DNA of 64,000 nucleotides, taken from sequence record NC_031103.1; one strand, 5' to 3'. This DNA comes from Escherichia phage vB_EcoM-UFV13. The notes under the pieces are model-generated. The model was not told the origin of the DNA, did no database searches, and was given only the letters and a program-made list of their open reading frames with translations. Shown here in pieces: positions 49,735-64,000 of the stretch (position 1 is its first letter; every line of letters starts with the position of its first letter). Position numbers and translations under genes: made by a program.

Positions 49735-50262
49735 TTATGCGAGTACCGTCTTTAACCGTTCTTCAAACTTCCGAAGAGTATTTTGGCGTTCAGCTCTTTG
49801 CTTTTTGTAAGTTTCAATACGCTCTGAAATGAGAGTGTATCGTTCATTTACTGATTCTTTCATAAAATCAGGAATTTCACGAGAAGCTTTAATCTCATCA
49901 AATTTATCAATAACAGCTTGCTCTTCAGCAATTAAGTTATCATACATCAAAATATCTTTCTTGATGAACTCAATATCTTCTTGAGTTACACGAGATAATT
50001 TAGATGCTTTATCCTTTTTGTACTGTTCATTAGTATCACGAGACCAGTGTAATGTACGATTTTTATTCGTATTTTTGTAAATTTCTACAATACCAATCTC
50101 ATCGATAATAACGATCCAATTCCAACGGGATTTGTAAATTTGTCCTCCATCAACCGTGATTTCACCTCCGATTGAGATGTCATTAAAGAACTTGCTTTGT
50201 GCTTCTGATTTAAATTTACCATCGTTGTAATTTACCAGGTTGAAAATATCTTTAGCGTTCAT
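49735..50262 (-). CDS. hypothetical protein with C-terminal coiled coil
   Basis: ATG at 50262 after conserved promoter-leader cassette. Confidence 0.5.
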   Translation of the reverse strand: MNAKDIFNLVNYNDGKFKSEAQSKFFNDISIGGEITVDGGQIYKSRWNWIVIIDEIGIVEIYKNTNKNRTLHWSRDTNEQYKKDKASKLSRVTQEDIEFIKKDILMYDNLIAEEQAVIDKFDEIKASREIPDFMKESVNERYTLISERIETYKKQRAERQNTLRKFEERLKTVLA

Positions 50263-50299
50263 TTTGTGTTCCTCCGTAGTTGATAGTTGTATAGTACCA
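50258..50299 (-). repeat. 42-bp exact direct repeat, copy 2
   Basis: Identical to 25301-25342. Confidence 0.7.
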
Positions 50300-50320
50300 C
50301 AGAGGAACGGTCTTGTAAAC
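50291..50320 (-). promoter_or_regulatory. early promoter with conserved leader cassette
   Basis: GTTTAC-18-TACTAT; leader identical to cassette at 25301-25342. Confidence 0.55.
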
Positions 50321-50322
50321 AA

Positions 50323-50625
50323 CTAAAAGAAACTTCTTTCACAATTTTTTCCACTGAACCATGCGCTCACTGCTTTCTTAGTCTCAGGAGCAGTGTTATC
50401 CATAAACCACTCAAAGGCAGCCTTTTTATGATTCTGGAGGGCTTCTCGGGCTTTAATCTGCTCACGGTCTATTAACACTAACATATGAGCCTTTCTTGTC
50501 ACCAAGGGCTTCTTATGATTCTTGGAGTATTCCCAGTCATTTGTCCAACGCATTGTCGTTGCGAACTGAAATACTGCGTCTTTAATTTTAGTTTCATAAA
50601 TTTCACGAGCCTTTGAGTATAACAT
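50323..50625 (-). CDS. hypothetical protein
   Basis: Track ORF 50323..50637 has N in codon 4; ATG at 50625 preceded by GGAGG. Confidence 0.45.
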   Translation of the reverse strand: MLYSKAREIYETKIKDAVFQFATTMRWTNDWEYSKNHKKPLVTRKAHMLVLIDREQIKAREALQNHKKAAFEWFMDNTAPETKKAVSAWFSGKNCERSFF

Positions 50626-50726
50626 CANTACCTCCATTNACCAGTTTAATTCTANTCATCTTTTTNATGGCAGTCCATATAATCTATTTCTGAACTGCCT
50701 TTTTGTCATAGAAGTCCTCTTATGAA

Positions 50727-51695
50727 TTATTTCAGAAGAGTAACCTCAGCAATTTCTTCCCAACCGTTTTTGTCGGTCATAATAAAGTCAGCAAGATAAA
50801 GTGCAGTACGCAGTGAAACATTGCGTAAACGATTAACATTGACTTTCATCCATGATAATGCTTTATAAGTTTCTTCATCAGAAAGACCGCGCTTTTGCAT
50901 CATGTCAGTTGAAAGAATAACATCTTCAACCCTGACCATAATTTCTTCATTAGTGTGAACACCCAAATCTAAATAAACTGAGCGGGACACTAATGCTTGT
51001 AAATGTGGAGCAAGTTTAGTACCACGGTCTAATTCGCGGTCAATGTCAACGTTTGTGATAAAAACAATCGTTCCTTTAAATTCAAACTCGCGCTCAATGC
51101 CTTTTTCTTCTAAGTAAGAAGATGCAGTGCTCCAGCAGACTTTACGGGTCTCTCCGGTGTCCAGAGCAGCTTTTAGAAGATTAAGAATGTCCATATCAGA
51201 GAAAACATCCACATCATCAATCAAAAGGACAGAATTCTCTTCACGATTATTCCAAAGCTGCTCATAAAGACCAATACCAGAGATTTTACCATTAATGCTT
51301 TTATACTCAATGTATCCAATATCATTTGCTTTATTTAAAGCTTTATCTAAAGAATACGTTTTACCAATACCTGCTGCACCAGAGATAATTAATGAACGAA
51401 TGTTTCCGTTAATAATACCATTCGTCATCATTCCCATAACATTAAATCTTTTATTAATGCGGGTTTTCATATCTTCATACGATTCTTTAACTTCTTCAAC
51501 TTTTACACCATCATATGAAATGTCTGATTTGTAAACCCAAACACCGCGACGTTTACCGTCAATTTCAACAAAAACTTTACCATCTCCTTGTGCATCTACC
51601 GGAGCATTATCTGGGAACCACTCACCTAAGAGTTCAAAAGTTCCAGAGATTTCTTTACCGAAGTAGATACCCTTATTGATAGTTACAGTTTTCAT
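50727..51695 (-). CDS. P-loop NTPase (AAA-like ATPase)
   Basis: ATG at 51695 (MKTVTINKG...); Walker A GAAGIGKTYS, Walker B VLLIDDVD. Confidence 0.6.
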   Translation of the reverse strand: MKTVTINKGIYFGKEISGTFELLGEWFPDNAPVDAQGDGKVFVEIDGKRRGVWVYKSDISYDGVKVEEVKESYEDMKTRINKRFNVMGMMTNGIINGNIRSLIISGAAGIGKTYSLDKALNKANDIGYIEYKSINGKISGIGLYEQLWNNREENSVLLIDDVDVFSDMDILNLLKAALDTGETRKVCWSTASSYLEEKGIEREFEFKGTIVFITNVDIDRELDRGTKLAPHLQALVSRSVYLDLGVHTNEEIMVRVEDVILSTDMMQKRGLSDEETYKALSWMKVNVNRLRNVSLRTALYLADFIMTDKNGWEEIAEVTLLK

Positions 51696-51729
51696 TTTAT
51701 TCTCCAAATCCGTATCAGTTGATAGTTGT

Positions 51730-51759
51730 ATAGTACCATAAAGCTTTATGCTTGTAAAC
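51730..51759 (-). promoter_or_regulatory. early promoter upstream of P-loop ATPase gene
   Basis: GTTTAC-18-TACTAT. Confidence 0.55.
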
Positions 51760-51790
51760 TGTTTTGTGAAAAAATTTTTGAAATAAAAAA

Positions 51791-51808
51791 GGGAGCCCGA
51801 AGGCTCCC
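51791..51808 (-). terminator. CUUCGG-type RNA hairpin between NTase and ATPase genes
   Basis: gggagcc-cgaa-ggctccc. Confidence 0.6.
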
Positions 51809-51810
51809 TA

Positions 51811-52824
51811 TCATTTATAATAACTTCGGTGGTTTTCAAGATAAACCCTCTCAAGGAAGTCATCCCAGAAACCCATGTCTACTTTTTGCTGCATACCGTT
51901 CTTAGAAGCTTCAGTAGATGCTGCTTCTACTTGATCGACCACATCTTCCAAAAACTCTTGAACCGTTTTAAATGGATGTTTACCCAACTTCACGTCGAGA
52001 ATAAATGGAGCGTCTTGAAGTGGATAAACCAAGTCACCAGTTTTGTAAATTTCCAATAGTTGGAGTCCACCACGGCAAGCATGACTCAGAGCTTTCCAGT
52101 CAATACCTTCATTGGCTTCGGCCTTACGAGCACGTTCACCATATTCAGCATCTAATTTGTTCAGTGACTGCTTAAGCTCAATAAGAGAAAGCGTTGTCTG
52201 ATATTTACGACCCAACACAGTGTAGAACGTTTGTGGGCCTGTTTTCTCATGATTATGGAACACCCATTCACAGAATTCGTTTTCTGGAAGACGATGCTTA
52301 ATATCTTCAACTTTAGTACGACGCTGCTTAATAGAACCATCTTCTTGGTAATCAACCCATTGCTCGGGGATTTGATTAACTACTTTCAATACATCACGTA
52401 ATGCAGCCAAACGAGAACCCTTGACACCGTATTTAGAAGCTTGCTTGCGGACATATCCTAAATATGATTTCATGTTAGTCGTATAAAAACGAGAACGGTT
52501 GTCTTGAATAAACTTCCACACATCAGGCAAATCAGATTTAACCACTAGCTCAGGTGGAGTGTGAAGCATATCCAACGCTACAGTTTCACCATCTGCTGCC
52601 AATTTAAAGAAATATTTAAGACTGTATAGTTCATGGTCAATATCATCTTTAGTGTTTTTAGATGATGTATTGTTAGTGTTTTTACTCATATGCTCTTTAA
52701 CATTTCCGATAAGAATATCGCGAGCAGGAGGAACAAAGATTTCTTTAAAATCTACATCAGATTCTGGAGTAGAAGTTCCATAAAGATGACTACCAAAATA
52801 GCTTTTCATTACTGTTTTCATCAT
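51811..52824 (-). CDS. nucleotidyltransferase-fold protein (Pol-beta/minimal NTase superfamily)
   Basis: N-terminal GSHLYGTSTPESDVDF = G-S-x4-G-x5-S-D-x-D signature. Confidence 0.6.
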   Translation of the reverse strand: MMKTVMKSYFGSHLYGTSTPESDVDFKEIFVPPARDILIGNVKEHMSKNTNNTSSKNTKDDIDHELYSLKYFFKLAADGETVALDMLHTPPELVVKSDLPDVWKFIQDNRSRFYTTNMKSYLGYVRKQASKYGVKGSRLAALRDVLKVVNQIPEQWVDYQEDGSIKQRRTKVEDIKHRLPENEFCEWVFHNHEKTGPQTFYTVLGRKYQTTLSLIELKQSLNKLDAEYGERARKAEANEGIDWKALSHACRGGLQLLEIYKTGDLVYPLQDAPFILDVKLGKHPFKTVQEFLEDVVDQVEAASTEASKNGMQQKVDMGFWDDFLERVYLENHRSYYK

Positions 52825-53282
52825 TCAGCCTTATATTCAATAACAGGACATACTTTAGCTTTACGGGCTTTTAAAAATTCGACGATAATAGATTTCTTGG
52901 GTTGAATAGGAGGTAAACCTTTATACGCCCTATCAATATTTTCTACATGTAAAGCATAATCCTTTTTCCATTTATAATCTTTATATTTTTCATGCAGTTG
53001 TGCAGGAATAACAAATGAACCAATAATAAGTAAAACAAGCAAAATGGCAAGTATAAATGCTGATGGAATAAGAGTCCATAAACTACCAAAAATAAGCCAT
53101 TTCTGCATGATTTCTGCGCAGATAATAGTTAGACCTGCGAGTATAGTACATCCGAAAAAAGAAACGAAAAATGTAGGAATAACAACAGACCAAAAATATG
53201 CACACAGTGTCTTAGGTCGTTTCCATTCATCATTAAACATTTTGAATAATTTATAGTGCCAAGAGTTTTCATTAATAATCAT
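52821..53282 (-). CDS. membrane protein
   Basis: 153 aa; multiple hydrophobic helices. Confidence 0.5.
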   Translation of the reverse strand: MIINENSWHYKLFKMFNDEWKRPKTLCAYFWSVVIPTFFVSFFGCTILAGLTIICAEIMQKWLIFGSLWTLIPSAFILAILLVLLIIGSFVIPAQLHEKYKDYKWKKDYALHVENIDRAYKGLPPIQPKKSIIVEFLKARKAKVCPVIEYKAE

Positions 53283-53284
53283 AA

Positions 53285-53806
53285 TTATCCTTTCATTGAA
53301 GGTGTAACAGTTGTTAAATACTTAATCATAGCTTCAGCTTCTGATTTTGATAATGAAATTTCTCCATTGTTTTGACGAATAGAAATAAAATCCGGATGAC
53401 GGTCACCACCAGCTTTTAAAATACACATATAAGTATCAGTTTCATCTTCAATATCTGAAATGATTGAAGCAGTTCCGCATGAATGTGGTTTTTGATAAAT
53501 CAATGCAGCTTTTCTTCCACCGTTTGACTGTTCATAAACTTTTAACACATCAAACAAATCACTTCTTTTATCAATAGCTAAGATGTTGTTTTCATCTTCA
53601 ATGTTAAATCCTTCGGATACTTCATAAAGTGTCACCCATAAATCACCGATGTCAATAACAGCATTTCCTTTTCCACGACTTTCAAGAATATGACAAATTT
53701 TCTTGATTTCGTCATAACTCATTTTAATAATATCATCTCCTTGAATAAGGAAGATGTCATTTTTAAATTTAACGCGAATTAAACCACTTCCACTTGAAAT
53801 AAACAT
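53285..53806 (-). CDS. hypothetical protein, tandem paralog
   Basis: C-terminus resembles that of next ORF. Confidence 0.5.
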   Translation of the reverse strand: MFISSGSGLIRVKFKNDIFLIQGDDIIKMSYDEIKKICHILESRGKGNAVIDIGDLWVTLYEVSEGFNIEDENNILAIDKRSDLFDVLKVYEQSNGGRKAALIYQKPHSCGTASIISDIEDETDTYMCILKAGGDRHPDFISIRQNNGEISLSKSEAEAMIKYLTTVTPSMKG

Positions 53807-53812
53807 ATTTCC

Positions 53813-54370
53813 TCACTTTGAAATCATAGTTGGAATGACAGAATCAAGATAAGTCTTTAGCGCAATGGCTTCGTCTTTGGTAAATGTGACAATATGTGAT
53901 CGAAAATCGTCAATTTGGCGAATAGTTAAGACATCTCCCTCTTCATAACATTTTGATACATTTAAAAGAGTTTCATCATTCTGATTGCAATCGTTAGTAA
54001 TAATAGCATTGCAATTTTTGAGCCATTTTAAACTATGTTTTCTTTCATTAGAATAATAAAAATATTTAATCTTAGCTATAAAACTATCCCAATGAATAAC
54101 TGATAAACACATTGACTCACTTTTAATATTAAATCCTGGGCATGAAGAATAAAAATGAATTTTGTGCTCATCATTGATGCTTACTATTTTATCAGTATAA
54201 GGATATTCAATTTGGGTTAAATGAATGATTTCACTAGGCGTAAAATACAGCATATCGTCTTCTTGCGTCAAACGATACATGTTATTTACTTTTTCTATAG
54301 CCAATTCACCAAAAAGCGGACTAACTTCTAATACTAATCGTTTCATATTGATTCTCTTCGACTCACTCAT
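53813..54370 (-). CDS. hypothetical protein, tandem paralog
   Basis: 185 aa. Confidence 0.5.
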   Translation of the reverse strand: MSESKRINMKRLVLEVSPLFGELAIEKVNNMYRLTQEDDMLYFTPSEIIHLTQIEYPYTDKIVSINDEHKIHFYSSCPGFNIKSESMCLSVIHWDSFIAKIKYFYYSNERKHSLKWLKNCNAIITNDCNQNDETLLNVSKCYEEGDVLTIRQIDDFRSHIVTFTKDEAIALKTYLDSVIPTMISK

Positions 54371-54505
54371 AATTACATACTCCTTTGAATAATATCAATA
54401 ATGTTGTTCACCAGATTATAAGTAAACATCGGGTGATAATATTGAATCATCACATACACAACAAACAAAATTTTCATTCTCTTCTCCTTGGCAGTTGACA
54501 AGATT

Positions 54506-54535
54506 ACTATACCATAACCTTGCCAACTTGTAAAC
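54506..54535 (-). promoter_or_regulatory. early promoter
   Basis: GTTTAC-18-TATAGT. Confidence 0.45.
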
Positions 54536-54537
54536 CA

Positions 54538-54711
54538 TTAAATGACGTTTTCAATAAAATTCTGAAGCTTTGTGTGAGCATCAACCATGATTTTCATTTC
54601 TTCCTTTGCGAAAGCTGTACCTCTTTCTCGAGCAGAATACTCATAGTCAGAAACTGCATTAGCATATTCTTCAATTAGCTTCATTAAAAACATCTGCTTT
54701 TCAGTTTTCAT
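54538..54711 (-). CDS. hypothetical small protein
   Basis: 57 aa hand-translated. Confidence 0.35.
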   Translation of the reverse strand: MKTEKQMFLMKLIEEYANAVSDYEYSARERGTAFAKEEMKIMVDAHTKLQNFIENVI

Positions 54712-54895
54712 TATTCCACCTAATCATTTCAAGATATTGAACTAACTTAGCTTTGGATTTATCCAAATCCTTTTTAGCTGCTTCTATGGCATCGTACGAA
54801 TATCCTTCACAATGCTCAACTGCCAATTGGTATGAATCTATTTCAATATCACGTGCTAATTTAATGATCTTTTCAAACTGTTCACGTGTTAGCAT
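54701..54895 (-). CDS. hypothetical small protein
   Basis: 64-aa ORF. Confidence 0.45.
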   Translation of the reverse strand: MLTREQFEKIIKLARDIEIDSYQLAVEHCEGYSYDAIEAAKKDLDKSKAKLVQYLEMIRWNNEN

Positions 54896-54897
54896 AC

Positions 54898-55137
54898 TTA
54901 AACTCTCGTATTATGATCGATAATTTCATCAAGAAACATATCTAAAGCTTCTACAGCATTATCAACTTTAGCTTCAAGTTCTTCAGCGCCTTTATTTGCA
55001 ATGCCTGCCGAAAACCAAGCAAAGTCACTAAGTTCCTCGTCTGCTTTGCGAATTAAAGCTACCAATTCTTTAATTTTATCTGCTTGTTCGATACTAATCA
55101 TTATTCCACCACATATGAAAGAGAGAATATTGCACAC
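54898..55137 (-). CDS. hypothetical small protein
   Basis: 79-aa ORF. Confidence 0.45.
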
Positions 55138-55289
55138 GCCATGTGAGTTGCAACTTCATCACACATATTATAACGTTTCTTAAGAAGTTCTACCAGTTCT
55201 TCACTAGTAACTTCATCCATGTCGACGAAAAAATCACCATTGATGATGACGTAGATATTTCCTTCTTGATTGAGTGCTTCAATTTTCAT
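55101..55289 (-). CDS. hypothetical small protein
   Basis: ATG at 55289 preceded by AGAGGAG. Confidence 0.45.
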
Positions 55290-55317
55290 GATGTTCTCCT
55301 CTTTATCCGATAGTTGT

Positions 55318-55347
55318 ATAGTATCACAGCCCAAACGGAAAGTAAAC
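55318..55347 (-). promoter_or_regulatory. early promoter
   Basis: GTTTAC-18-TACTAT downstream of hairpin. Confidence 0.55.
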
Positions 55348-55362
55348 CGGTAAAATGAAAAA

Positions 55363-55380
55363 AGTCTCCCGAAGGAGACT
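55363..55380 (-). terminator. CUUCGG-type RNA hairpin
   Basis: agtctcc-cgaa-ggagact. Confidence 0.6.
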
Positions 55381-55384
55381 AATG

Positions 55385-55771
55385 TTATTCGAGGGAAAGA
55401 AGATACTTACTCTGGTAAAACATCCCAGTAATATCATCTATCGTGCTTTGAATGGCTGGAGGCATTTCTTTATAAATGCTGTTAGATTGGTCTAGTATGC
55501 GATCAATCATTTTAATTGTGTCGGTAGGAAGTTTACTGGCATCTGGAATTGAAGGTGTGTATTTTCTACCAGAATACCCCAAATATTGCTCACCAAATTT
55601 ATCAATCAAATCTGGCAACTCGGAAAAAATAAAATCGTATGCTTTGTGTCTAGCATAACTTTTAGTTTCAAAATGTGCAGAATGAAAATAAGCTTGTGCA
55701 GCCATTAATAAACCTAAGTATTCATCTGCCTTTGAAGGTTTTCCACTTTGTGAAAAGTCGCTGAATTTCAT
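55385..55771 (-). CDS. hypothetical protein
   Basis: 128-aa ORF. Confidence 0.5.
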
Positions 55772-56061
55772 TCAGTCTCCAATTTAATGTTCATAATTCT
55801 AGCGTATGATTGTGCCATCTCCGCGCCTCGCTCTATACATTCAAAATCAGAAGAGCACGGGTCATTTTTATAGGTCGTTCTCATAAAACTATAGAACTGT
55901 TCAGATGATTCTACGCTTTTATTTTCAAAAAGCATATAAACATGTCTAATACCAGATTCCATAAATTTATCAAAATGAGGATCGACATTCGCTTCAATTG
56001 GTGGAGATAAAACAAATGACAATCCTAGCATGGCAAAAAGTGCCGTTGCTTTTAAGGCCAT
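55768..56061 (-). CDS. rI: lysis inhibition regulator rI
   Basis: 97 aa; matches T4 RI as recalled. Confidence 0.9.
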   Translation of the reverse strand: MALKATALFAMLGLSFVLSPPIEANVDPHFDKFMESGIRHVYMLFENKSVESSEQFYSFMRTTYKNDPCSSDFECIERGAEMAQSYARIMNIKLETE

Positions 56062-56073
56062 AAAGGCCTCCTA

Positions 56074-56286
56074 TCATTTTTGTCCTGTATTTACTTTATG
56101 CCGATGCACGGCCTTAACTTTATCAAGGTATTTTTCAAAATTTCGCAATCTAGTATAGTCTGCCGGAGATTGGTTGAGTGATACTTCTCGACGCAAAGCT
56201 GAAATGATATTTCCAACTTCCCTACGAATTTCATCTAATTGAAGCACAGTAAGATTGCGAAGTTGCTTTTCAGTTAATTGTAGCAT
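56074..56286 (-). CDS. hypothetical small protein
   Basis: 70-aa ORF. Confidence 0.45.
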
Positions 56287-56328
56287 ATATACCCCTTTAG
56301 TTAGATAAATCTATTTATAACTTTTGCA

Positions 56329-56910
56329 CTAACCGAGCTTTTTAGTTAATTCATTCCAATGTTTTCTACACAAAGAAACATAAATTTCATCACCAATACA
56401 GATTTGATTGCCTTCTTTAACTGGTGTTCCATCTTCCATCAATCGAGCTGTCATAATCGCTTTTTTGCCGCAATGACAAACTGCCTTTAGTTCAATAAGT
56501 TTATCTGCAATCGCTAAAAGTTCTTTAGAACCTTCAAACAATTTTCCAGCGAAATCAGTCCTTAACCCATAAGCCATAACAGGAACATTATATGTATCAA
56601 CAATTCGACTCAATTGATGCACTTGTTCAGTTTTTAAAAACTGGGCTTCATCTACAAATACGCAATGAATATCTTTTTGTGCTTCAGCCCATTTATAGAA
56701 CTCGAAAATATCCATATCATCTGTAATAATATTCGCTTCCTGTTTAATTCCAATGCGAGAAACAACTTCACAGACAGAATCACGAGTATCAATAGCAGGC
56801 TTAAGAACTAATACACTCATTCCACGTTCTTTATAATTATGTGCAGCAGTCAAAAGAGAAGCAGATTTTCCAGCATTCATTGCTGCATAAGTAAAAATTA
56901 AACTCGCCAT
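56329..56910 (-). CDS. tk: thymidine kinase
   Basis: 193 aa; P-loop AAMNAGKS; matches T4 Tk. Confidence 0.9.
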   Translation of the reverse strand: MASLIFTYAAMNAGKSASLLTAAHNYKERGMSVLVLKPAIDTRDSVCEVVSRIGIKQEANIITDDMDIFEFYKWAEAQKDIHCVFVDEAQFLKTEQVHQLSRIVDTYNVPVMAYGLRTDFAGKLFEGSKELLAIADKLIELKAVCHCGKKAIMTARLMEDGTPVKEGNQICIGDEIYVSLCRKHWNELTKKLG

Positions 56911-56919
56911 ATCACCTTC

Positions 56920-57105
56920 TTAAAGCGTATTCACATAAGCTATTAATTCATTTTCTTTCTTATCAAACCGATCAGCAAATTCTTCCTGCTGTTCGGGAGA
57001 TAGCGGGCCGTATTCATTATAAAAGGTGTTTGCTTCTGTATGCTCATCTAGAAGTTCATGGATAAGCTCAAAAAATTTATCTTTTTGTTCTTTGCTTAGA
57101 CTCAT
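56920..57105 (-). CDS. hypothetical small acidic protein
   Basis: 61-aa ORF. Confidence 0.45.
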   Translation of the reverse strand: MSLSKEQKDKFFELIHELLDEHTEANTFYNEYGPLSPEQQEEFADRFDKKENELIAYVNTL

Positions 57106-57275
57106 ATATTAATTTCCAGGAGTTTTAAAATAATTCGCTTTTGCTTAAATATTTCCATAGTTAAATGACCAGTATCTTTTTGACCGATTCCAATGGCAAA
57201 ACCTTTATTAACAGCGAGTTCAATTAAATTATCAAGCTCACGTAACACTTCGTATTGTAACTCAAAACTATTCAT
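57102..57275 (-). CDS. hypothetical small protein
   Basis: 58 aa hand-translated; ATGA overlaps both neighbours. Confidence 0.35.
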   Translation of the reverse strand: MNSFELQYEVLRELDNLIELAVNKGFAIGIGQKDTGHLTMEIFKQKRIILKLLEINI

Positions 57276-57499
57276 TTTGGTTTACCTTCTTTAACGAAAT
57301 CAGGATAAGGGTAAAATCCTGAATAAAATCCTTCACCTTTATGATTGATGCATCCTTTATTAGAACAATAGCACCAATAATCGAAATCACAAGCCATTTC
57401 ATCGTTGCATAAAGCAAAAACAACCGGCCACTTACACTTTTCACAGTGGGCATTTTTAAGAATACTAGTTTGGCTCATAACCATGTAACCTTTAAGCAA
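57272..57499 (-). CDS. cysteine-rich small protein
   Basis: 75 aa with 9 Cys (CEKCKW...CNDEMAC...CYC...C). Confidence 0.5.
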   Translation of the reverse strand: MLKGYMVMSQTSILKNAHCEKCKWPVVFALCNDEMACDFDYWCYCSNKGCINHKGEGFYSGFYPYPDFVKEGKPK

Positions 57500-57687
57500 T
57501 ATTCTTCTACATGTTGTTTACGACCTTTCTTATCAATAAAGGTATATTCAACGAATGTTCCAATGTAGTCTTTATCTACATCATGTGGACTATTAATTGG
57601 ACATTTAGTACGGCAAATGCGTTCCCATTGACGAATAATTTCCACTTTGTTTTTAGGATCAAACGGATGTGGGTAATGTACTTTCAT
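57475..57687 (-). CDS. hypothetical small protein
   Basis: 70-aa ORF. Confidence 0.45.
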   Translation of the reverse strand: MKVHYPHPFDPKNKVEIIRQWERICRTKCPINSPHDVDKDYIGTFVEYTFIDKKGRKQHVEEYCLKVTWL

Positions 57688-58138
57688 AATCCACCACTAT
57701 TAAATCAATATCAGGAGTAAACATGTCGATTAATTTAGAAACCTTATCCCAATCGCCGCCAGCAATACCACAACCTATGCGTGGAATGTAAATTACTGGT
57801 TTAAACAAAAGGGTTTCTGCCTGTAGATTTAATTCTATCATGCAGTTTACTAAAGCACCATAATCAAGATTAGGACCTGGTTCGTATTGCGTATACAAGT
57901 TATAACATATGCCAAAACCATTAGGTTTATGTTTAAAAACAATAGACATATCACCGAGTTTTTCACGCGAACCATATTCAGTTGTGGTTTTATCTATTTC
58001 TAAAATTTTGGGATAGGCTCTTGCTAATTGACCCGCTACACCTGAACCCATAGTATGAAAACAGTTACACCCGTGCGCAATAATATTACCTTNAAGAAAN
58101 AGGGCGACAATATCGCCCTTGATATATTTTACAATCAT
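57659..58138 (-). CDS. macro domain protein
   Basis: 159 aa; glycine-rich GSGVAG and GCGIAGG loops; two N-derived X residues. Confidence 0.6.
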   Translation of the reverse strand: MIVKYIKGDIVAXFLXGNIIAHGCNCFHTMGSGVAGQLARAYPKILEIDKTTTEYGSREKLGDMSIVFKHKPNGFGICYNLYTQYEPGPNLDYGALVNCMIELNLQAETLLFKPVIYIPRIGCGIAGGDWDKVSKLIDMFTPDIDLIVVDYESTLPTSV

Positions 58139-58482
58139 CTAGTACTCAATCCTCGATTATAAGAATCTACTAAACGGTCAACCATTGAATGACAAGCGGC
58201 TTTATCTTTCTCCTCCGCAACTGAACATTCTAAGGTATTCCACTTTTTAGCATATCGTTTTAATAATGTATCGTTTTTGTATCTGCTTGATTTATCTCTT
58301 TCTCCGTCTTTATATGCATATATTAATTTCTGTGCAAATTCAGCTTGGCATGCTTTATTTTTCCCACAATAATCTGCCGCAGTGCGGTTTACATATTCTC
58401 TAATTTCAGTATATGATGTATCTGCTGACGCAGAAGCAGAAAATGAAATTAATCCTATACATAAAACCAAAATTTTAGTCAT
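58135..58482 (-). CDS. secreted small protein
   Basis: 115 aa; signal peptide MTKILVLCIGLISFSASASA. Confidence 0.5.
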   Translation of the reverse strand: MTKILVLCIGLISFSASASADTSYTEIREYVNRTAADYCGKNKACQAEFAQKLIYAYKDGERDKSSRYKNDTLLKRYAKKWNTLECSVAEEKDKAACHSMVDRLVDSYNRGLSTR

Positions 58483-59020
58483 TTACTATTTCCAAAAGTT
58501 TATTATTTTTAAGGTAATTAGCCTTTTCTAGGACTTCAGAAGCATATTTAGAACCAGCTTTAACATTCCATCCCGAATTATAAGAGGATATTGCTTTTCT
58601 TATATCGCCCTTATGTATATTTAACCAATAAGAAAGTTCAATGTACGCCCATGAAGCTGAATTGGATCGTTTATTCAACATTCTTTTTATTTCAGCATCG
58701 GTCATATTATAACCAAGTTCCTTAACTCTTGCTCGCATAGTAGGCAAATAATTTTGGAACATTCCATAGGCGTGATGCTTTGGTTTAGATTTTAAATTAA
58801 CTCCGCCAGAGCTTTCTTGCCATAAAATAGCAGCCATTATATGACCTAATCCGCTCTTATGGATATTTTTGTGTGTTTTATATTTTCCATCCTTAGAAAA
58901 TTGTTCCCCGAATTGATACGCGTAACGCATGTTATCGAGTTGGACATTACTGAAAGTATGCTCGGAGCTATGTGCCATCATTGAAATGGCCAATAGACCA
59001 GCGAGTAGTGCTTTTCTCAT
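58475..59020 (-). CDS. secreted lytic transglycosylase-like protein (SLT domain)
   Basis: Signal peptide; catalytic E-S (WQESSGG), GMFQ, SYNSG motifs. Confidence 0.7.
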   Translation of the reverse strand: MRKALLAGLLAISMMAHSSEHTFSNVQLDNMRYAYQFGEQFSKDGKYKTHKNIHKSGLGHIMAAILWQESSGGVNLKSKPKHHAYGMFQNYLPTMRARVKELGYNMTDAEIKRMLNKRSNSASWAYIELSYWLNIHKGDIRKAISSYNSGWNVKAGSKYASEVLEKANYLKNNKLLEIVND

Positions 59021-59027
59021 GCTTACC

Positions 59028-59489
59028 TCATTGAGTTTTAATTACTGCTTTAGAAGCCTTTCCTGGTAAACGACGACTGTTAATAATTGCCATCCTGCAT
59101 TGAAGCGACGGGTCTTTGAACTTCGCATTAGGTTTACAAACTGTAAATCCAAGCCAAAGATTTCCATCTGTGATTTCTAAACGTCCAGGACGATATTCAA
59201 CCCCATCAATAAAATCCTCGTCAATGTCAGGACGCGGAGGCATACTTAGGAATTCATTAACTTCTAAAACATGGTCTTTTATTTTATGGAATAATTCAAA
59301 AACGTATGTCTCATCAATCTCCCGTTGAATTGCGCGATCAAGAAGATGTTGAGAATATTTTAGATGAAACGATGAGACCCCTGCTGCTTTTGATGCCTCA
59401 CGAATCTCATTGTTAATTTGACGAAACTCCGACTCAAAGTGACGACGAAGCTTATTTCGACGGATAAAAACTTCTGTGTTGATAGTCAT
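59028..59489 (-). CDS. regB: RegB endoribonuclease
   Basis: 153 aa; matches T4 RegB as recalled. Confidence 0.9.
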   Translation of the reverse strand: MTINTEVFIRRNKLRRHFESEFRQINNEIREASKAAGVSSFHLKYSQHLLDRAIQREIDETYVFELFHKIKDHVLEVNEFLSMPPRPDIDEDFIDGVEYRPGRLEITDGNLWLGFTVCKPNAKFKDPSLQCRMAIINSRRLPGKASKAVIKTQ

Positions 59490-59516
59490 GTTATTCTCCT
59501 CTTAACTGATAGAAAA

Positions 59517-59546
59517 ATTATACCACAGTCAAGAGGAAAAGTAAAC
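59517..59546 (-). promoter_or_regulatory. early promoter upstream of regB
   Basis: GTTTAC-18-TATAAT. Confidence 0.55.
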
Positions 59547-59548
59547 AG

Positions 59549-59827
59549 TTATTCTTTAAATCTAATCAATTTATTCATAGACTTTGAAACTTCTGCACGA
59601 ACCTCATGTAAGTTTTTAAGCTGTTCAAGACGCTGCTCATAGTAAGCAATTTCATCTTCTTCGAGACAGTCCTGTGAATCTTCTTTAAGATAACGCGCAT
59701 AGTCCTGGAAAGCTTTACGGACTACTTCCTGGAAATCATCAAGACTTTGAATTTTCTTAGGAGCGGCAGATACACGACGAGGTGCAGTATAATACTCATA
59801 ACCAAACCCTGCGCTTAATTGAGCCAT
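59549..59827 (-). CDS. hypothetical small helical protein
   Basis: ATG at 59827 ([13 protein letters not shown]...); TAATG coupling. Confidence 0.5.
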
Positions 59828-60093
59828 TAGTATTTTTCCTCTGGTTGGAACACAGCACGACAAGCCCACATGCTGGCTTCTTTGAGTTTCGTTTTAGCAA
59901 TAGTTAACTGATCGAGACTTTCAGCATAATTCTTTGCGAATTCACAGTCTTCACACTTATCTAGTGCTTCCCAGAATTCATCATATAAAGCATCAAAGAT
60001 AAGTCCTAAACGAACTTCAGCGTCTTTAATAGCATTTACTTTACCGATTTTTTCGTCGGTATGTGGCTTATAACCTTTAATATCTTCAATCAT
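59827..60093 (-). CDS. hypothetical small helical protein
   Basis: ATG at 60093 preceded by GAGGAAG ([12 protein letters not shown]...). Confidence 0.5.
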
Positions 60094-60307
60094 ATTTGAC
60101 TTCCTCACCAGTACATAAATCGTATTCAACTAAACGAATAGGTTCATGAATGCCATATCCCTGAACAGAAATTTCTGTCGTAGGATAAATTCCATTAATA
60201 TCACCCATGTTCCATGCTTCGTTAAATTGCTGTTCGCCTGAATTACTAAACCATTCGGCGAAAGCATTTAGCACATCTTTAGAACCTTCAATAATTATCT
60301 TTGCCAT
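60086..60307 (-). CDS. hypothetical small protein
   Basis: 73-aa ORF. Confidence 0.45.
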   Translation of the reverse strand: MAKIIIEGSKDVLNAFAEWFSNSGEQQFNEAWNMGDINGIYPTTEISVQGYGIHEPIRLVEYDLCTGEEVKYD

Positions 60308-60669
60308 TACAGACTCTCAGTAAAGGTACGAGCGATAACGTCGCGCTGCTGTTCCGGAGTCAGAGAGTTAAAGCGAACTGCATAACCGGATACGCGGATG
60401 GTCAGCTGCGGATATTTTTCCGGATGCTTAACTGCATCTTCCAGAGTTTCACGACGCAGAACGTTAACGTTCAGGTGTTGACCACCTTCAATTTTAACTG
60501 TAGGCTGTGGCTCAATTTCAATTTCACGGGCATGCAAACCGTAGAAAATTTCTGGGTCTACAAAAGAGTCCTCTTTAAAGGTTTTAGAGACAATAATTCG
60601 TGCTTGAATACCATCTTCAAAATAAATAGTACCTTTATGCGTGCCTTCAAGAATTTGATATGCTTTCAT
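60307..60669 (-). CDS. autonomous glycyl radical cofactor (GrcA/YfiD-like)
   Basis: C-terminal half matches E. coli YfiD/GrcA incl. RVSGYAVRF; 3' half markedly more GC-rich. Confidence 0.85.
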
Positions 60670-60676
60670 ATAAACC

Positions 60677-61006
60677 TCAATTAGAAAATAAATTTATCCA
60701 AGATTGTTCTTTAATTAAAAACGGCTCAGAATCATATGCCATTAAACTCTGCGTGATTAGTCCTTTAAAAGGTCCATCAATAAATTCCATGGTAAAATAT
60801 GGAATTTTATTCATTAGCCGTGCATTAGGAGCAGTACACAAAACTCTGCATCCTTTGAATACGCCTTTTTGTAATTTGTATTGCTTAGGATAAAATTCGC
60901 TCAAGACGTTGTTATTTGCCAAAATTTCAAAATGATTCACCAATTTATTTTTAATAGTTTTTGGCGAAAAATAAAGATATTCGAAAAGCTGAGTGTCTGT
61001 CATCAT
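60677..61006 (-). CDS. hypothetical protein
   Basis: Internal ATG at 61006 (MMTDTQLF...). Confidence 0.45.
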
Positions 61007-61542
61007 TGCATTCCGATTACGAAAAACTGTGGACGAGTAATACCACCAATACAACATTTAATATTACAGCAGCAGTGTACAGTGTCAATATGGACACTAT
61101 AAATCTTATCCATATCAGGAGATTTGACAGGCTCATCAATTATATACAAAATTCGCGAAAGCGATAAACCTCTGAACTTGCTTCCTTTATTACCAATAAA
61201 ACTGCGCACAGAATCAGTAAATAAACGAAAACGTATATCATCATTAGAATAACGCGAAAATTCATTTTTAATGTTATTTGCAGAAATTTTAGCGTAAGCT
61301 GAAGTATTAGAAAGAACAATAACTGTTCCGCCATCATACAACCAATTAGCAGCAAAGTTAGTCACAGCAATTGATTTACCGGATTGACGTCCACCATCTA
61401 TACGAAGTGTGCAATACTGTTTAAGTAAATCTTCAAATGGTGGGATATAATCGTTTTTACAAATTTCTTCTACTCTAGCATCAGAATGGTGTGTAAAAGC
61501 ATTCATCAGGGATAGATAAGGACCAGTTAAAAATGTTCTCAT
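61003..61542 (-). CDS. small P-loop NTPase
   Basis: Walker A GGRQSGKS, Walker B ILYIIDEP; start assumed at ATG 61542. Confidence 0.5.
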   Translation of the reverse strand: MRTFLTGPYLSLMNAFTHHSDARVEEICKNDYIPPFEDLLKQYCTLRIDGGRQSGKSIAVTNFAANWLYDGGTVIVLSNTSAYAKISANNIKNEFSRYSNDDIRFRLFTDSVRSFIGNKGSKFRGLSLSRILYIIDEPVKSPDMDKIYSVHIDTVHCCCNIKCCIGGITRPQFFVIGMQ

Positions 61543-61708
61543 TTTATTCTCTCTAAATTTGGGCCATTCCATGGCGCATGAATTGTCCATTTCTGTATTT
61601 ACCCATTACCGCACTTGGGCTCGACCTTATTACAGGTTGGCGGGAATCCCTCACAGAATCATGAGGTCCAGCTTGTTCCCATTTTATTTGAATGTAAATA
61701 GGTCTGAG

Positions 61709-62284
61709 TTAGGAATTACGGGCTGCATTAGCAACGGCGTAAGCGTACTGAACATTAGCGTCTTTAAACGTACCTTTAGAGGTATCTATTTCTGCCTTAA
61801 AGCCGCCTTTAGTCATAACATCGGCAAATTCTTTACGGAAAGCCATTGCATCAAGACTTCTCCATGATGATTTGTGCTTGGCGAATTCAAGACCAGCGTA
61901 GTTGACAGCCTTAGCTAATTTATTATCAATAACCCATTTACCAGCTTTAGGCACAAACACCGGGCCTTTCTGTTTAGAGAATAGTTTTAAATTCCAGCGA
62001 CGAAGGTCACCGTCAGCTTTAACAAAAGCTGCGTCCAAATTACTAGCAACAACATCTTGAATATGGCCAAATTTAAGCCCATCAACTTCAATATTTAGAT
62101 CGGTACGCCAGCGAAGTCCTTCCCAAGCGAAAGCTTTAAAGTCAGAAGCTTTTGTAGCTAAGTATCGTTCAATAGGGGCTGTTTTAGGGTCAAAGCCGTT
62201 TCCTCGGTAAGTCCACTCATCTTTATTAATGCCTTTGGCCTTTTCCACAGAAGCTTCAGCGATAAATTCTTTATACGTTTTCAT
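61709..62284 (-). CDS. internal protein with capsid targeting sequence (IPIII-like)
   Basis: 191 aa; N-terminal MKTYKEFIAE. Confidence 0.7.
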   Translation of the reverse strand: MKTYKEFIAEASVEKAKGINKDEWTYRGNGFDPKTAPIERYLATKASDFKAFAWEGLRWRTDLNIEVDGLKFGHIQDVVASNLDAAFVKADGDLRRWNLKLFSKQKGPVFVPKAGKWVIDNKLAKAVNYAGLEFAKHKSSWRSLDAMAFRKEFADVMTKGGFKAEIDTSKGTFKDANVQYAYAVANAARNS

Positions 62285-62298
62285 GTGTTTCCTTTATT

Positions 62299-62613
62299 TT
62301 ATTCTTTAGGGAAGTTTTTAGAATATGCATCATAAAGCTTATTTCCAATACGGCGGAAAACTCTAGCCGCAAAACGATTTTCAGGGTTTTTAATCATGAT
62401 TTGCATCATGTAAGTTCCTGCATCCGAAAGAGCTTCTTCATAGTACCCATTAATTTCTTTAAGAGTCCTACGTTTACCACCAGGACCATCAACAGTAATT
62501 TTCCATTTACCTGTAGAAGTGCGGCTCGGTGGTTCAACTTGTTCAATCCAAATATAACCGCCTTCAACGCGTTGTCCGGCGGATTCTGCAATAAATTCTT
62601 TATATGTTTTCAT
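62299..62613 (-). CDS. internal protein with capsid targeting sequence (IPII-like)
   Basis: 104 aa; N-terminal MKTYKEFIAE; own early promoter. Confidence 0.7.
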   Translation of the reverse strand: MKTYKEFIAESAGQRVEGGYIWIEQVEPPSRTSTGKWKITVDGPGGKRRTLKEINGYYEEALSDAGTYMMQIMIKNPENRFAARVFRRIGNKLYDAYSKNFPKE

Positions 62614-62643
62614 TTTTGTTTCCTTGTTTGTTTTGATAGAGTA

Positions 62644-62673
62644 ATTATACCATATTAATACTTAAGCGTAAAC
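62644..62673 (-). promoter_or_regulatory. early promoter upstream of IPII-like gene
   Basis: GTTTAC-18-TATAAT. Confidence 0.55.
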
Positions 62674-62676
62674 AAT

Positions 62677-62935
62677 TTAAGCTTTACCGCCAGAAATAAT
62701 TCCGAAGTTGTTAAAATCGTATCCAATATCGTCAACATCTACTTTAGTACTTGCTACAACATAAGCAATTTCACTACGTTTTGCATAGGTGTTGATTTCT
62801 TTACCATCGCCACCTAAGAAAGTACCCATTACGTTTTAATGAGCCAAAGTCTTCCGCATCACCAATGAAAGCTTTAACTTTAAATTTAGGACCTTTGGCA
62901 TCTGCTTCAACGATAAATTCTTGATACATTTTCAT
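62677..62935 (-). pseudogene. internal-protein-like gene with apparent +1 frameshift
   Basis: MKMYQEFIVE... terminates after 44 codons; reading continues in another frame to 62677; shift near C-run about 62825-62827. Confidence 0.45.
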
Positions 62936-62941
62936 TTTTCC

Positions 62942-63355
62942 TTAGTAAATTGATTTACCATAGTATTTGTACCAAGTCGGACGTTGAGCAATTTTTTCAT
63001 CTAAGCGTGCTTGACTTATCGCAATGGACGCTTCAGACGGGACGTAATTATTACGAAATTCTACAGGAATGTCGGAAATATCCTGGACTGTCGTGTCCTT
63101 GATTTTGAAACCACGTTTCAAACATTCAGCGATTAGCTCGATTTGACGTAAACGTAAAAATTCGAGTTTGTCGTAAAAGAATGTTACGTGACCTGTGCCT
63201 AAGATAAATGTTGGAGAGATTTTAAAATCCTTTACACGTTTACCGTTTTGAACATGTTTACGGACTGCACCAAATACGCGTGGTAATTCACGATACTCAG
63301 CCATAAGATGTTGGTCGGTCAGTTCAGAAACAAGTGTTAAATTGATACGAGTCAT
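62942..63355 (-). CDS. denV: endonuclease V (pyrimidine dimer DNA glycosylase)
   Basis: ATG at 63355 gives [12 protein letters not shown]...; matches T4 endo V. Confidence 0.9.
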
Positions 63356-63382
63356 AATTTCCTCCAAGTAGTTGATGAATGT

Positions 63383-63412
63383 ATAGTATCAAAACCCTTG
63401 GAGGAAGTAAAC
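63383..63412 (-). promoter_or_regulatory. early promoter upstream of denV
   Basis: GTTTAC-18-TACTAT. Confidence 0.55.
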
Positions 63413-63413
63413 A

Positions 63414-64000
<587 letters not shown>

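Follow-up and report, generated by a model that had tools for sequence, protein, structure and literature searches.

YfiD (GrcA) of Escherichia coli and Y06I of phage T4 are the two spare-part proteins with experimental validation (PMC8683613). According to Wagner 2001, which is cited in PMC8683613, Y06I serves as an autonomous glycyl-radical cofactor, and both Y06I and YfiD receive a glycyl radical from the activating enzyme of pyruvate formate-lyase (PFL) and restore PFL that has been cleaved by oxygen at Gly734. In YfiD, residues 61-127 form a structured domain that mimics residues 693-759 of PFL, whereas residues 1-60 are disordered; the N-terminal region is needed for the binding of cleaved PFL and for activation (PMC8683613). 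We analysed the gene encoding Y06I, vs.6, in a 64,000-nt stretch of Escherichia phage vB_EcoM-UFV13 (sequence record NC_031103.1; the whole stretch is hereafter referred to as the window). The 3' part of this gene contains a tract of 175 bp that is nearly identical to E. coli grcA. This tract very probably represents a gene-conversion patch derived from host grcA and located inside an older phage homologue of the same gene and recurring across T4-like lineages.

The vs.6 (Y06I) coding sequence is located at positions 60307-60669 on the minus strand of the window (open reading frame (ORF) 60669..60307, 120 amino acids) and was assigned on the basis of the ORF itself, matches to PF01228 and PDB entry 6OWR, and the identity of its product to the T4 protein. 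The product is 100% identical to Vs.6/Y06I of T4 by sequence comparison; the gene is T4-type vs.6, that is, a phage homologue of GrcA/YfiD encoding an autonomous glycyl-radical cofactor. The phage belongs to Tequatrovirus, a 601-nt stretch around vs.6 is 98.8% identical to many T4-like phages, and the surrounding gene order (vs.8, vs.7, vs.6, vs.5, vs.4, vs.3, regB and vs.1) is the same as in T4. The Pfam domain Gly_radical (PF01228) was identified at residues 61-101 of Vs.6 (E-value 2.8e-18; 66.8 bits versus a cut-off of 22.2), the closest solved structure is that of YfiD (6OWR; E-value 8.6e-42), and the best-matching NCBIfam family by far is TIGR04365, the GrcA equivalog (IPR011140), which covers residues 20-120 (E-value 3.7e-45). 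In alignments, residues 61-120 of Vs.6 are identical to residues 68-127 of E. coli GrcA at all 60 positions, and residues 58-120 align with PFL residues 697-759 (E-value 5e-26). The radical glycine, Gly95, is encoded by the GGT codon at 60385..60387 (minus strand) within the motif RVSGYAV, and is equivalent to Gly102 of GrcA and Gly734 of PflB in alignments to 6OWR and to the PFL structure 1CM5. Vs.6 is a small stand-alone protein (120 amino acids, ~14 kDa) lacking the catalytic barrel of glycyl-radical enzymes, and the neighbouring ORFs are unrelated small phage genes. As judged from the literature, Vs.6 carrying a radical on Gly95, installed by the PFL-activating enzyme of the host, can replace the C-terminal radical domain of PFL after oxygen cleavage at Gly734. 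The initial annotation, which was made from the sequence alone, had noted a match of the C-terminal 60 residues, including the radical motif, to GrcA and the existence of a T4 homologue serving as an autonomous glycyl-radical cofactor. The match is exact, with RVSGYAV present, and the function agrees with Wagner 2001 as cited in PMC8683613; the relationship to T4 is likewise borne out by alignment, except that the gene is T4 vs.6 itself and not a mere relative.

At the nucleotide level, 182 of the 185 bases in the segment 60491..60307 are identical to those at the 3' terminus of grcA in E. coli (98.4%; E-value 3e-84), and this match was obtained in all of the 5,426 complete E. coli genomes. 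The three mismatches are located at 60313, 60316 and 60394. The host-identical tract itself spans 60317..60491 on the minus strand. It covers codons 61-117 together with a few bases of the adjoining codons 60 and 118, codes for the structured glycyl-radical domain and contains a single mismatch to the B-type grcA allele of E. coli (174/175 identical). This in-tract difference, at 60394 on the minus strand, is synonymous by base comparison (Arg92, CGC in the window and CGT in E. coli) and can be regarded as a private phage change because none of the 5,426 genomes matches the window with fewer than three mismatches. T4 shows no mismatch to the B-type allele over 60491..60314. Upstream of 60491, identity to grcA drops to an approximately random level within 1 to 4 bases (AAAA in the phage, CGCG in the host), and no grcA similarity was found past the vs.6 stop codon in the alignment to the E. 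coli grcA locus. A segment of host-level identity is therefore flanked, within vs.6, by diverged phage sequence. In megablast searches against the same E. coli genomes, window bases 1-50000 yielded no match, and in bases 50001-64000 the vs.6 tract was the best match in every genome, with pflB as one listed secondary match among secondary matches that were not all enumerated.

The GC content of the tract (60316-60491) is 50.0%, compared with 35.4% for the 5' half of vs.6 and 34.5% for the whole window, and 60302-60514 is the only part of the window in which a 176-nt stretch reaches 50% (z = 3.9; 0.02% of such stretches). No 176-nt stretch of the window is richer in GC than the tract. The GC content at third codon positions (GC3) is 44% in the 3' half of vs.6 and 24% in the 5' half, and the same part of E. 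coli grcA has a GC3 of 43%. The compositional patchiness, in both GC and GC3, coincides with the host-identical segment. The GC-rich, host-like 3' half and AT-rich 5' half described in the initial annotation were thus recovered, uniform GC across the gene was excluded by the scan, and the proposed boundary at about 60500 lies within 9 nt of the measured edge at 60491; the elevated nucleotide identity to host grcA turned out to be stronger than had been stated. In Escherichia phage OES_C-2 (locus L090, 1529-1885), vs.6 is shortened to 357 nt by a two-codon deletion in the 5' half, and its tract equals the E. coli B-type allele at all positions up to the phage-type base at 60316.

The remaining parts of vs.6 are of phage type. 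The AT-rich 5' half (codons 1-59 and the first base of codon 60) occupies 60492..60669 on the minus strand, and no nucleotide similarity of codons 1-59 to E. coli was detectable in the 5,426 genomes or in the grcA alignment. At the protein level, residues 22-59 of Vs.6 share 33% identity with GrcA residues 28-66 over 39 residues (BLASTP E-value 4e-5), and a profile built from phage N-termini could be aligned over its full length with one built from the N-termini of bacterial GrcA proteins (hhalign probability 89%, E-value 2.4e-6, residues 2-59 versus 3-66). The N-terminal half, which is about 26-33% identical to that of GrcA and 7 residues shorter, is on the evidence of these alignments not foreign but a diverged GrcA N-terminus. 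The phage-type 3' end, at 60307..60316 on the minus strand, begins with the third base of codon 118 (GAG) and continues through AGT and CTG to the stop codon TAA, which overlaps the ATG of vs.5 (TAATG) according to the sequence and the ORF list. The last sense codons are GAG AGT CTG in the window versus GAA AGC CTG in E. coli, the differing bases being those at 60316 and 60313. The phage-type G and T at these positions are common to RB69, JK45, TH58 and the distant Slopekvirus VAC66, and this 3' end is ancestral phage sequence. In Salmonella phage Lv5cm (locus L004, 2350-2535), the ribosome-binding site of vs.6 and approximately the first 150 nt of the gene are partially duplicated in tandem, which generates a truncated 61-amino-acid ORF directly before the complete vs.6.

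The same two-part, full-length protein layout is found in Slopekvirus and Krischvirus. The 3' half of the gene in the Slopekvirus VAC66 encodes almost the same peptide, although its synonymous divergence (dS) from E. coli is 2.4, i.e. saturated, and the Krischvirus copy shares 75% nucleotide identity with E. coli. Because these relatives combine the full-length layout with old 3' halves, the full-length gene predates the host-identical tract, and the tract is a replacement within an existing homologue rather than a fusion. The initial annotation had instead proposed that the captured 3' end of grcA was fused to a phage-derived N-terminus. In such a scenario, a host grcA fragment would have been joined de novo, by illegitimate recombination, to an unrelated phage ORF. 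The abrupt junction at 60491/60492 and the weakness of the N-terminal similarity to GrcA (33% over 39 residues) would fit this idea, but we consider it improbable: the phage and GrcA N-termini align over their entire length, the last codons retain phage-type bases common to the old copies, and the gene in Slopekvirus and Krischvirus points to a complete gene before the patch arrived. Two of these older copies were inspected individually. In the Klebsiella phage VAC66 (locus L006, 1501-1863), the C-terminal peptide is nearly the same, synonymous sites are saturated relative to every host sampled, and no recent host patch is present. The Krischvirus GEC-3S (locus L008, 1267-1683) also has a nearly identical C-terminal peptide and lacks a recent patch, with at most 80% nucleotide identity to any host; this E. 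coli phage carries the variant LLDAVEH, not the E. coli one. PFL-type modules that are 71-78% nucleotide-identical to vs.6 were further observed in T5-like Salmonella and E. coli phages, in Aeromonas T4-like phages and in some jumbo phages, and the glycyl-radical module is widespread among lytic phages.

Tracts of a different host type were found in the Klebsiella phages of the genus Jiaodavirus, whose Vs.6 carries the Klebsiella residues LLDAVEH, as compared with LEDAVKH in E. coli phages. The best 80 loci from a GTDB scan with GrcA did not include Klebsiella pneumoniae, and Klebsiella-type chromosomal grcA alleles were obtained from one metagenome pattern scan, in which the dominant allele was represented by 21 contigs. 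The 106 Klebsiella phage records are 95-97.6% identical to the dominant Klebsiella-type tract and 86-89% identical to the E. coli tract, whereas E. coli phages are 85-89% identical to the Klebsiella-type tract. No Salmonella-specific conversion was found in the phage collection, where the best match to the Salmonella-type tract did not exceed 87.6%. Individual Klebsiella-type phages are closest to different host alleles: the metagenomic phage L108 is identical to the dominant allele (0/156 differences), Mineola is identical to the allele in L106 (0/156), and the metagenomic phage L104 shows 2/156 differences from a third allele (L100/L112), which differs from the others at up to 19 positions. 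In Nispero, RCIP0102 and KSKp, the tract resembles a mosaic of several host alleles. Among the 25 distinct synonymous variants of Jiaodavirus, 19 match host polymorphism in both site and base, compared with 34% expected under the null (P = 2e-5). In addition, the diversity among Jiaodavirus copies is larger in the tract (2-15/156 nt) than in the 5' half of vs.6 (0-7/177 nt). An invariant peptide would lead one to expect the reverse, and the excess in the tract is as expected from repeated import of host alleles. These comparisons of phage and host alleles indicate more than one independent exchange in Jiaodavirus. The Jiaodavirus vs.6 genes collected here (L166-L172, L005, L092, L104 and L108) carry differing host grcA haplotypes, some of them exact and some mosaic, and all keep the same phage-type last ~20 nt. 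Enterobacterial grcA was also encountered on a contig labelled Vagococcus sp. WN89Y (L039), where contamination or a wrong label is possible, and on a 'plasmid' of 276 kb from Klebsiella sp. WOUb02 (L031), possibly a chromid or a misassembly.

If the host origin of the tract is accepted, its near-identity to the host could also be maintained by selection at the nucleotide level, for example through RNA regulation shared with the host grcA mRNA. The host tract is matched at 99-100% identity in hundreds of phages, and post-transcriptional regulation of grcA mRNA is mentioned in PMC5610899. However, host species vary freely at the synonymous sites of the tract, phage copies contain scattered private synonymous changes, and the Klebsiella phages carry several different host haplotypes, all of which make this explanation very unlikely.

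Synonymous sites also bear on constraint acting on the protein. Hardly any variation is seen in the C-terminal 60 residues across Enterobacterales and Pasteurellaceae, and this near-invariance would be in keeping with a single ancient capture of the whole gene, after which the disordered N-terminal half drifted fast and the radical domain was frozen by purifying selection. Selection on the protein does not conserve synonymous sites, however. In the 3' half, the dS between E. coli and Citrobacter is 0.39 and that between E. coli and Salmonella is 0.98, for bacteria that encode the same peptide, whereas the dS of the window phage, T4 and RB69 from E. coli is only 0.045-0.09, with most of the differences located in the phage-type last codons; these low values uphold the earlier suggestion that the 3' half is host-derived and recent. 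Since Slopekvirus encodes almost the same peptide and yet shows a dS of 2.4 from E. coli, protein constraint cannot explain the identity of the tract, and purifying selection was rejected as its cause on these synonymous-site data. The tract is also far younger than the flanking genes when phage genera are compared. When the window is compared with RB69 (Mosigvirus), identity in the flanking genes amounts to 68-73% and the dS in vs.7, vs.5, vs.4 and regB to 1.1-2.4, whereas within vs.6 the dS is 0.45 for the 5' half and only 0.068 for the 3' half. The difference between 0.068 and the values in the flanks places the tract much later than the split of Tequatrovirus and Mosigvirus, and an ancient capture is accordingly a highly improbable account of it.

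Regarding the donor, the tract shares only 79.5% and 75% nucleotide identity with pflB and tdcE, respectively, as compared with 98.4% with grcA; these far poorer matches identify grcA as the donor, and pflB and tdcE were rejected. Over the 186-nt 3' segment, in which the tract and the phage-type end are taken together, the window shows 4 differences from E. coli (97.8% identity) and 6 from Escherichia sp. (96.8%), and its identity to Citrobacter and Salmonella is 90 and 83%, respectively. T4 and Lv5cm differ from E. coli at 3 and 5 positions, respectively, and T4 differs from Escherichia sp. at 5. The host grcA genes themselves differ from that of E. coli at 2 (Escherichia sp.), 14 (Citrobacter) and 29 (Salmonella) positions, an order that fits the host phylogeny. 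A matching grcA tract is carried by every one of the 5,426 E. coli genomes, and host grcA adjoins eamB in the three loci inspected; in the one locus for which a wider flank was available, its second neighbour is ung. The phage alleles are nested within the host-species clade, and on this evidence the transfer is judged to have proceeded from host to phage. The reverse, in which a T4-like phage would have donated the 3' half of grcA to E. coli, could be entertained because sequence identity is symmetrical and because two-way exchange has been proposed for cyanophage psbA (PMC1484495). It conflicts with the host-like GC3 of the tract, which is the compositional outlier of the phage window, with the divergence of host tracts in the order of host phylogeny, and with the presence of the tract in all E. 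coli genomes next to the same neighbour where inspected, and it is no more credible than an ancient capture. An assembly artefact, by which host reads, always present to some extent in phage preparations, would have produced a chimeric consensus, is the least credible explanation, given that ~750 genomes, sequenced independently in many laboratories and including RB69 and several records of T4, share one in-frame junction and one set of phage-type terminal codons, and that the tract remains of the E. coli type, not of the type of the propagation host, in phages grown on Yersinia, Serratia or Citrobacter.

Among the ~750 phage records, the identity to the E. coli B-type allele is at least 99% in 290 (many of them 100%), 95-99% in 351, 90-95% in 2 and 80-90% in 107, the last group being Klebsiella phages; identity to the E. 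coli tract thus reaches 95% or more in 641 records. All three of the sampled E. coli tract haplotypes have exact (175/175) phage copies: many for the B-type allele, 18 for the K-12 type (C at 60451) and 9 for the O157 type (G at 60478). These exact copies are suggestive of more than one event in Tequatrovirus and Mosigvirus. The two genera may have undergone separate conversions, or the patch may have spread between them by phage-phage recombination. With respect to the 5' half of vs.6 (60492-60669 versus 1523-1699 of the RB69 locus L089), the dS of 0.45 versus 1.1-2.4 in the flanks was noted as a sign that the whole gene is either younger or more constrained, and vs.6 was possibly exchanged between Tequatrovirus and Mosigvirus. 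A scan of IMG/VR for the phage-specific junction returned only 4 contigs, too few for population analysis, and was not used.

T4 infection fragments host DNA, and T4 recombination is very active, depends on UvsX and readily involves homologous DNA on plasmids. Against this background, the best explanation of the tract is as follows. A full-length, diverged grcA homologue has long been present in T4-like phages. In the E. coli-infecting Tequatrovirus and Mosigvirus, its segment of ~175 bp for the structured radical domain was exchanged for the corresponding piece of host grcA, most probably through homologous recombination (gene conversion). A host grcA fragment would pair with vs.6 only where the two are already similar, namely in the conserved radical module. 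Such limited pairing would explain why the 5' edge falls at the first conserved codon, why the phage-type 3' end and the overlap with vs.5 were kept, and why no host sequence is present on either side. A first conversion would create perfect 175-bp homology to the host and should thereby make further conversions easier. The same process has taken place repeatedly in Klebsiella-infecting relatives, with Klebsiella grcA alleles. The tract coincides exactly with the functional module, which has to fit the PFL and the activase of the host, and the match to the host allele may be either an advantage or a mere by-product of homology. By the positions given for YfiD in PMC8683613, the patch lies inside the structured domain, and the unconverted half corresponds to the disordered N-terminal region.

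Several points weigh against a gene-conversion patch that recurs across lineages. Recombination between T-even phages and the host chromosome is inferred here from sequence only. Vs.6 scores 153.3 bits against TIGR04365, below the trusted cut-off of 170 for this NCBI GrcA equivalog, a shortfall that is attributed to its diverged N-terminus. The null used for the coincidence of phage variants with host polymorphism (19/25 versus 34%) is simple, assuming a uniform distribution of synonymous changes, and the Klebsiella-type host alleles are gut-metagenome contigs that were so labelled by protein similarity to Klebsiella species representatives. Within Tequatrovirus, the divergence of the tract (0-3.4%) is similar to that of the flanking genes, and the tract is still of the E. 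coli type in Tequatroviruses that were isolated on Yersinia, Citrobacter, Serratia or Salmonella, which implies that conversion is not frequent. One event followed by phage-phage spread would fit most of the data from E. coli phages, and the two shared E. coli polymorphic sites could represent parallel transitions among ~640 genomes.

T-even coliphages degrade host DNA and use modified cytosine. The nearly exact copy of host grcA in vs.6 nevertheless suggests that DNA is exchanged with the host chromosome even by these strictly lytic phages. It is tentatively proposed that the 3' module of vs.6 acts as a standing recombination hotspot between T-even-type lytic phages and the host chromosome and is repeatedly re-synchronised to the grcA allele of the current host; we hold this broader idea to be slightly less probable than its opposite. 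Exchange between vs.6 and grcA might also take place in both directions, with phages shuffling grcA alleles among Enterobacterales.

Some further features of the locus were noted. GAGG at 60675..60678 on the minus strand, located 5 nt upstream of the vs.6 ATG (TGAGGTTTATATG), is the likely ribosome-binding site by reading of the sequence. A scan of 59900-61700 for promoters and terminators gave counts no different from those in shuffled controls. On the plus strand, a 127-codon antisense ORF (60301-60684) spans all of vs.6 without a stop codon and is probably a shadow ORF of a strongly constrained gene. Two genes downstream of vs.6, a vs.4-like ORF (59827-60129, minus strand) contains the Pfam Acb2/Tad1 hairpin domain (E-value 1.2e-19); Acb2/Tad1 is a family of phage proteins that sequester cyclic-nucleotide immune signals.

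The vs.6 gene and the biochemical role of its product are already known and belong to textbook T4 biology; what is new is the recombination history of the gene. The literature search returned functional papers only, and no description of the vs.6/grcA nucleotide mosaic was found in it, although earlier mentions are possible. The gene itself is ordinary, and the clean, host-specific and apparently repeated exchange between a host and lytic phages is a useful and testable observation. If repeated conversion is true, natural recombination of virulent T-even-type phages with the host chromosome would be documented, and if the hotspot is true as well, phages would recombine with host DNA in nature despite the degradation of host DNA and their modified cytosine. 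With its 175-bp perfect homology, vs.6 would then provide a natural and tractable reporter for host-to-phage gene conversion. In practical terms, short-read and k-mer classifiers will label this 175-bp stretch as 'E. coli' inside phage genomes.

Compared with T4 Vs.6/Y06I and E. coli GrcA, the window protein is alike in its C-terminal 60 residues, in the RVSGYAV motif and in being a stand-alone protein of ~14 kDa; the divergence from GrcA, in sequence and in length, is confined to the N-terminal half. The C-terminal glycyl-radical domains of PflB and TdcE share the fold and motif with Vs.6 but not the high nucleotide identity. The PFL-like modules of T5-like phages, Krischvirus, Slopekvirus, Aeromonas phages and jumbo phages resemble vs.6 in being homologous glycyl-radical modules carried by lytic phages, but their nucleotide identity is only 71-82%, their synonymous sites are saturated relative to the hosts sampled, and they contain no recent host patch. 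The closest parallel in recombination history is offered by the photosystem genes psbA and psbD of cyanophages, for which intragenic exchange between host and phage was described by Sullivan 2006 (PMC1484495) and reportedly by Zeidner 2005. In these genes, intragenic recombination between host and phage is accompanied by patchy G+C content within the gene (PMC1484495). Like vs.6, psbA and psbD are host-like metabolic genes in T4-like lytic phages that contain exchanged segments and show host-specific clustering of alleles (PMC1484495). In contrast to psbA and psbD, vs.6 contains a single, sharply bounded 175-bp module that is 99-100% identical to that of a named host species. A T-even coliphage acts as the recipient, and the product is a repair cofactor of an anaerobic enzyme and not a photosystem core protein. 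If repeated conversion is true, intragenic exchange of the cyanophage type would extend to enteric phages and to a repair factor of anaerobic metabolism.

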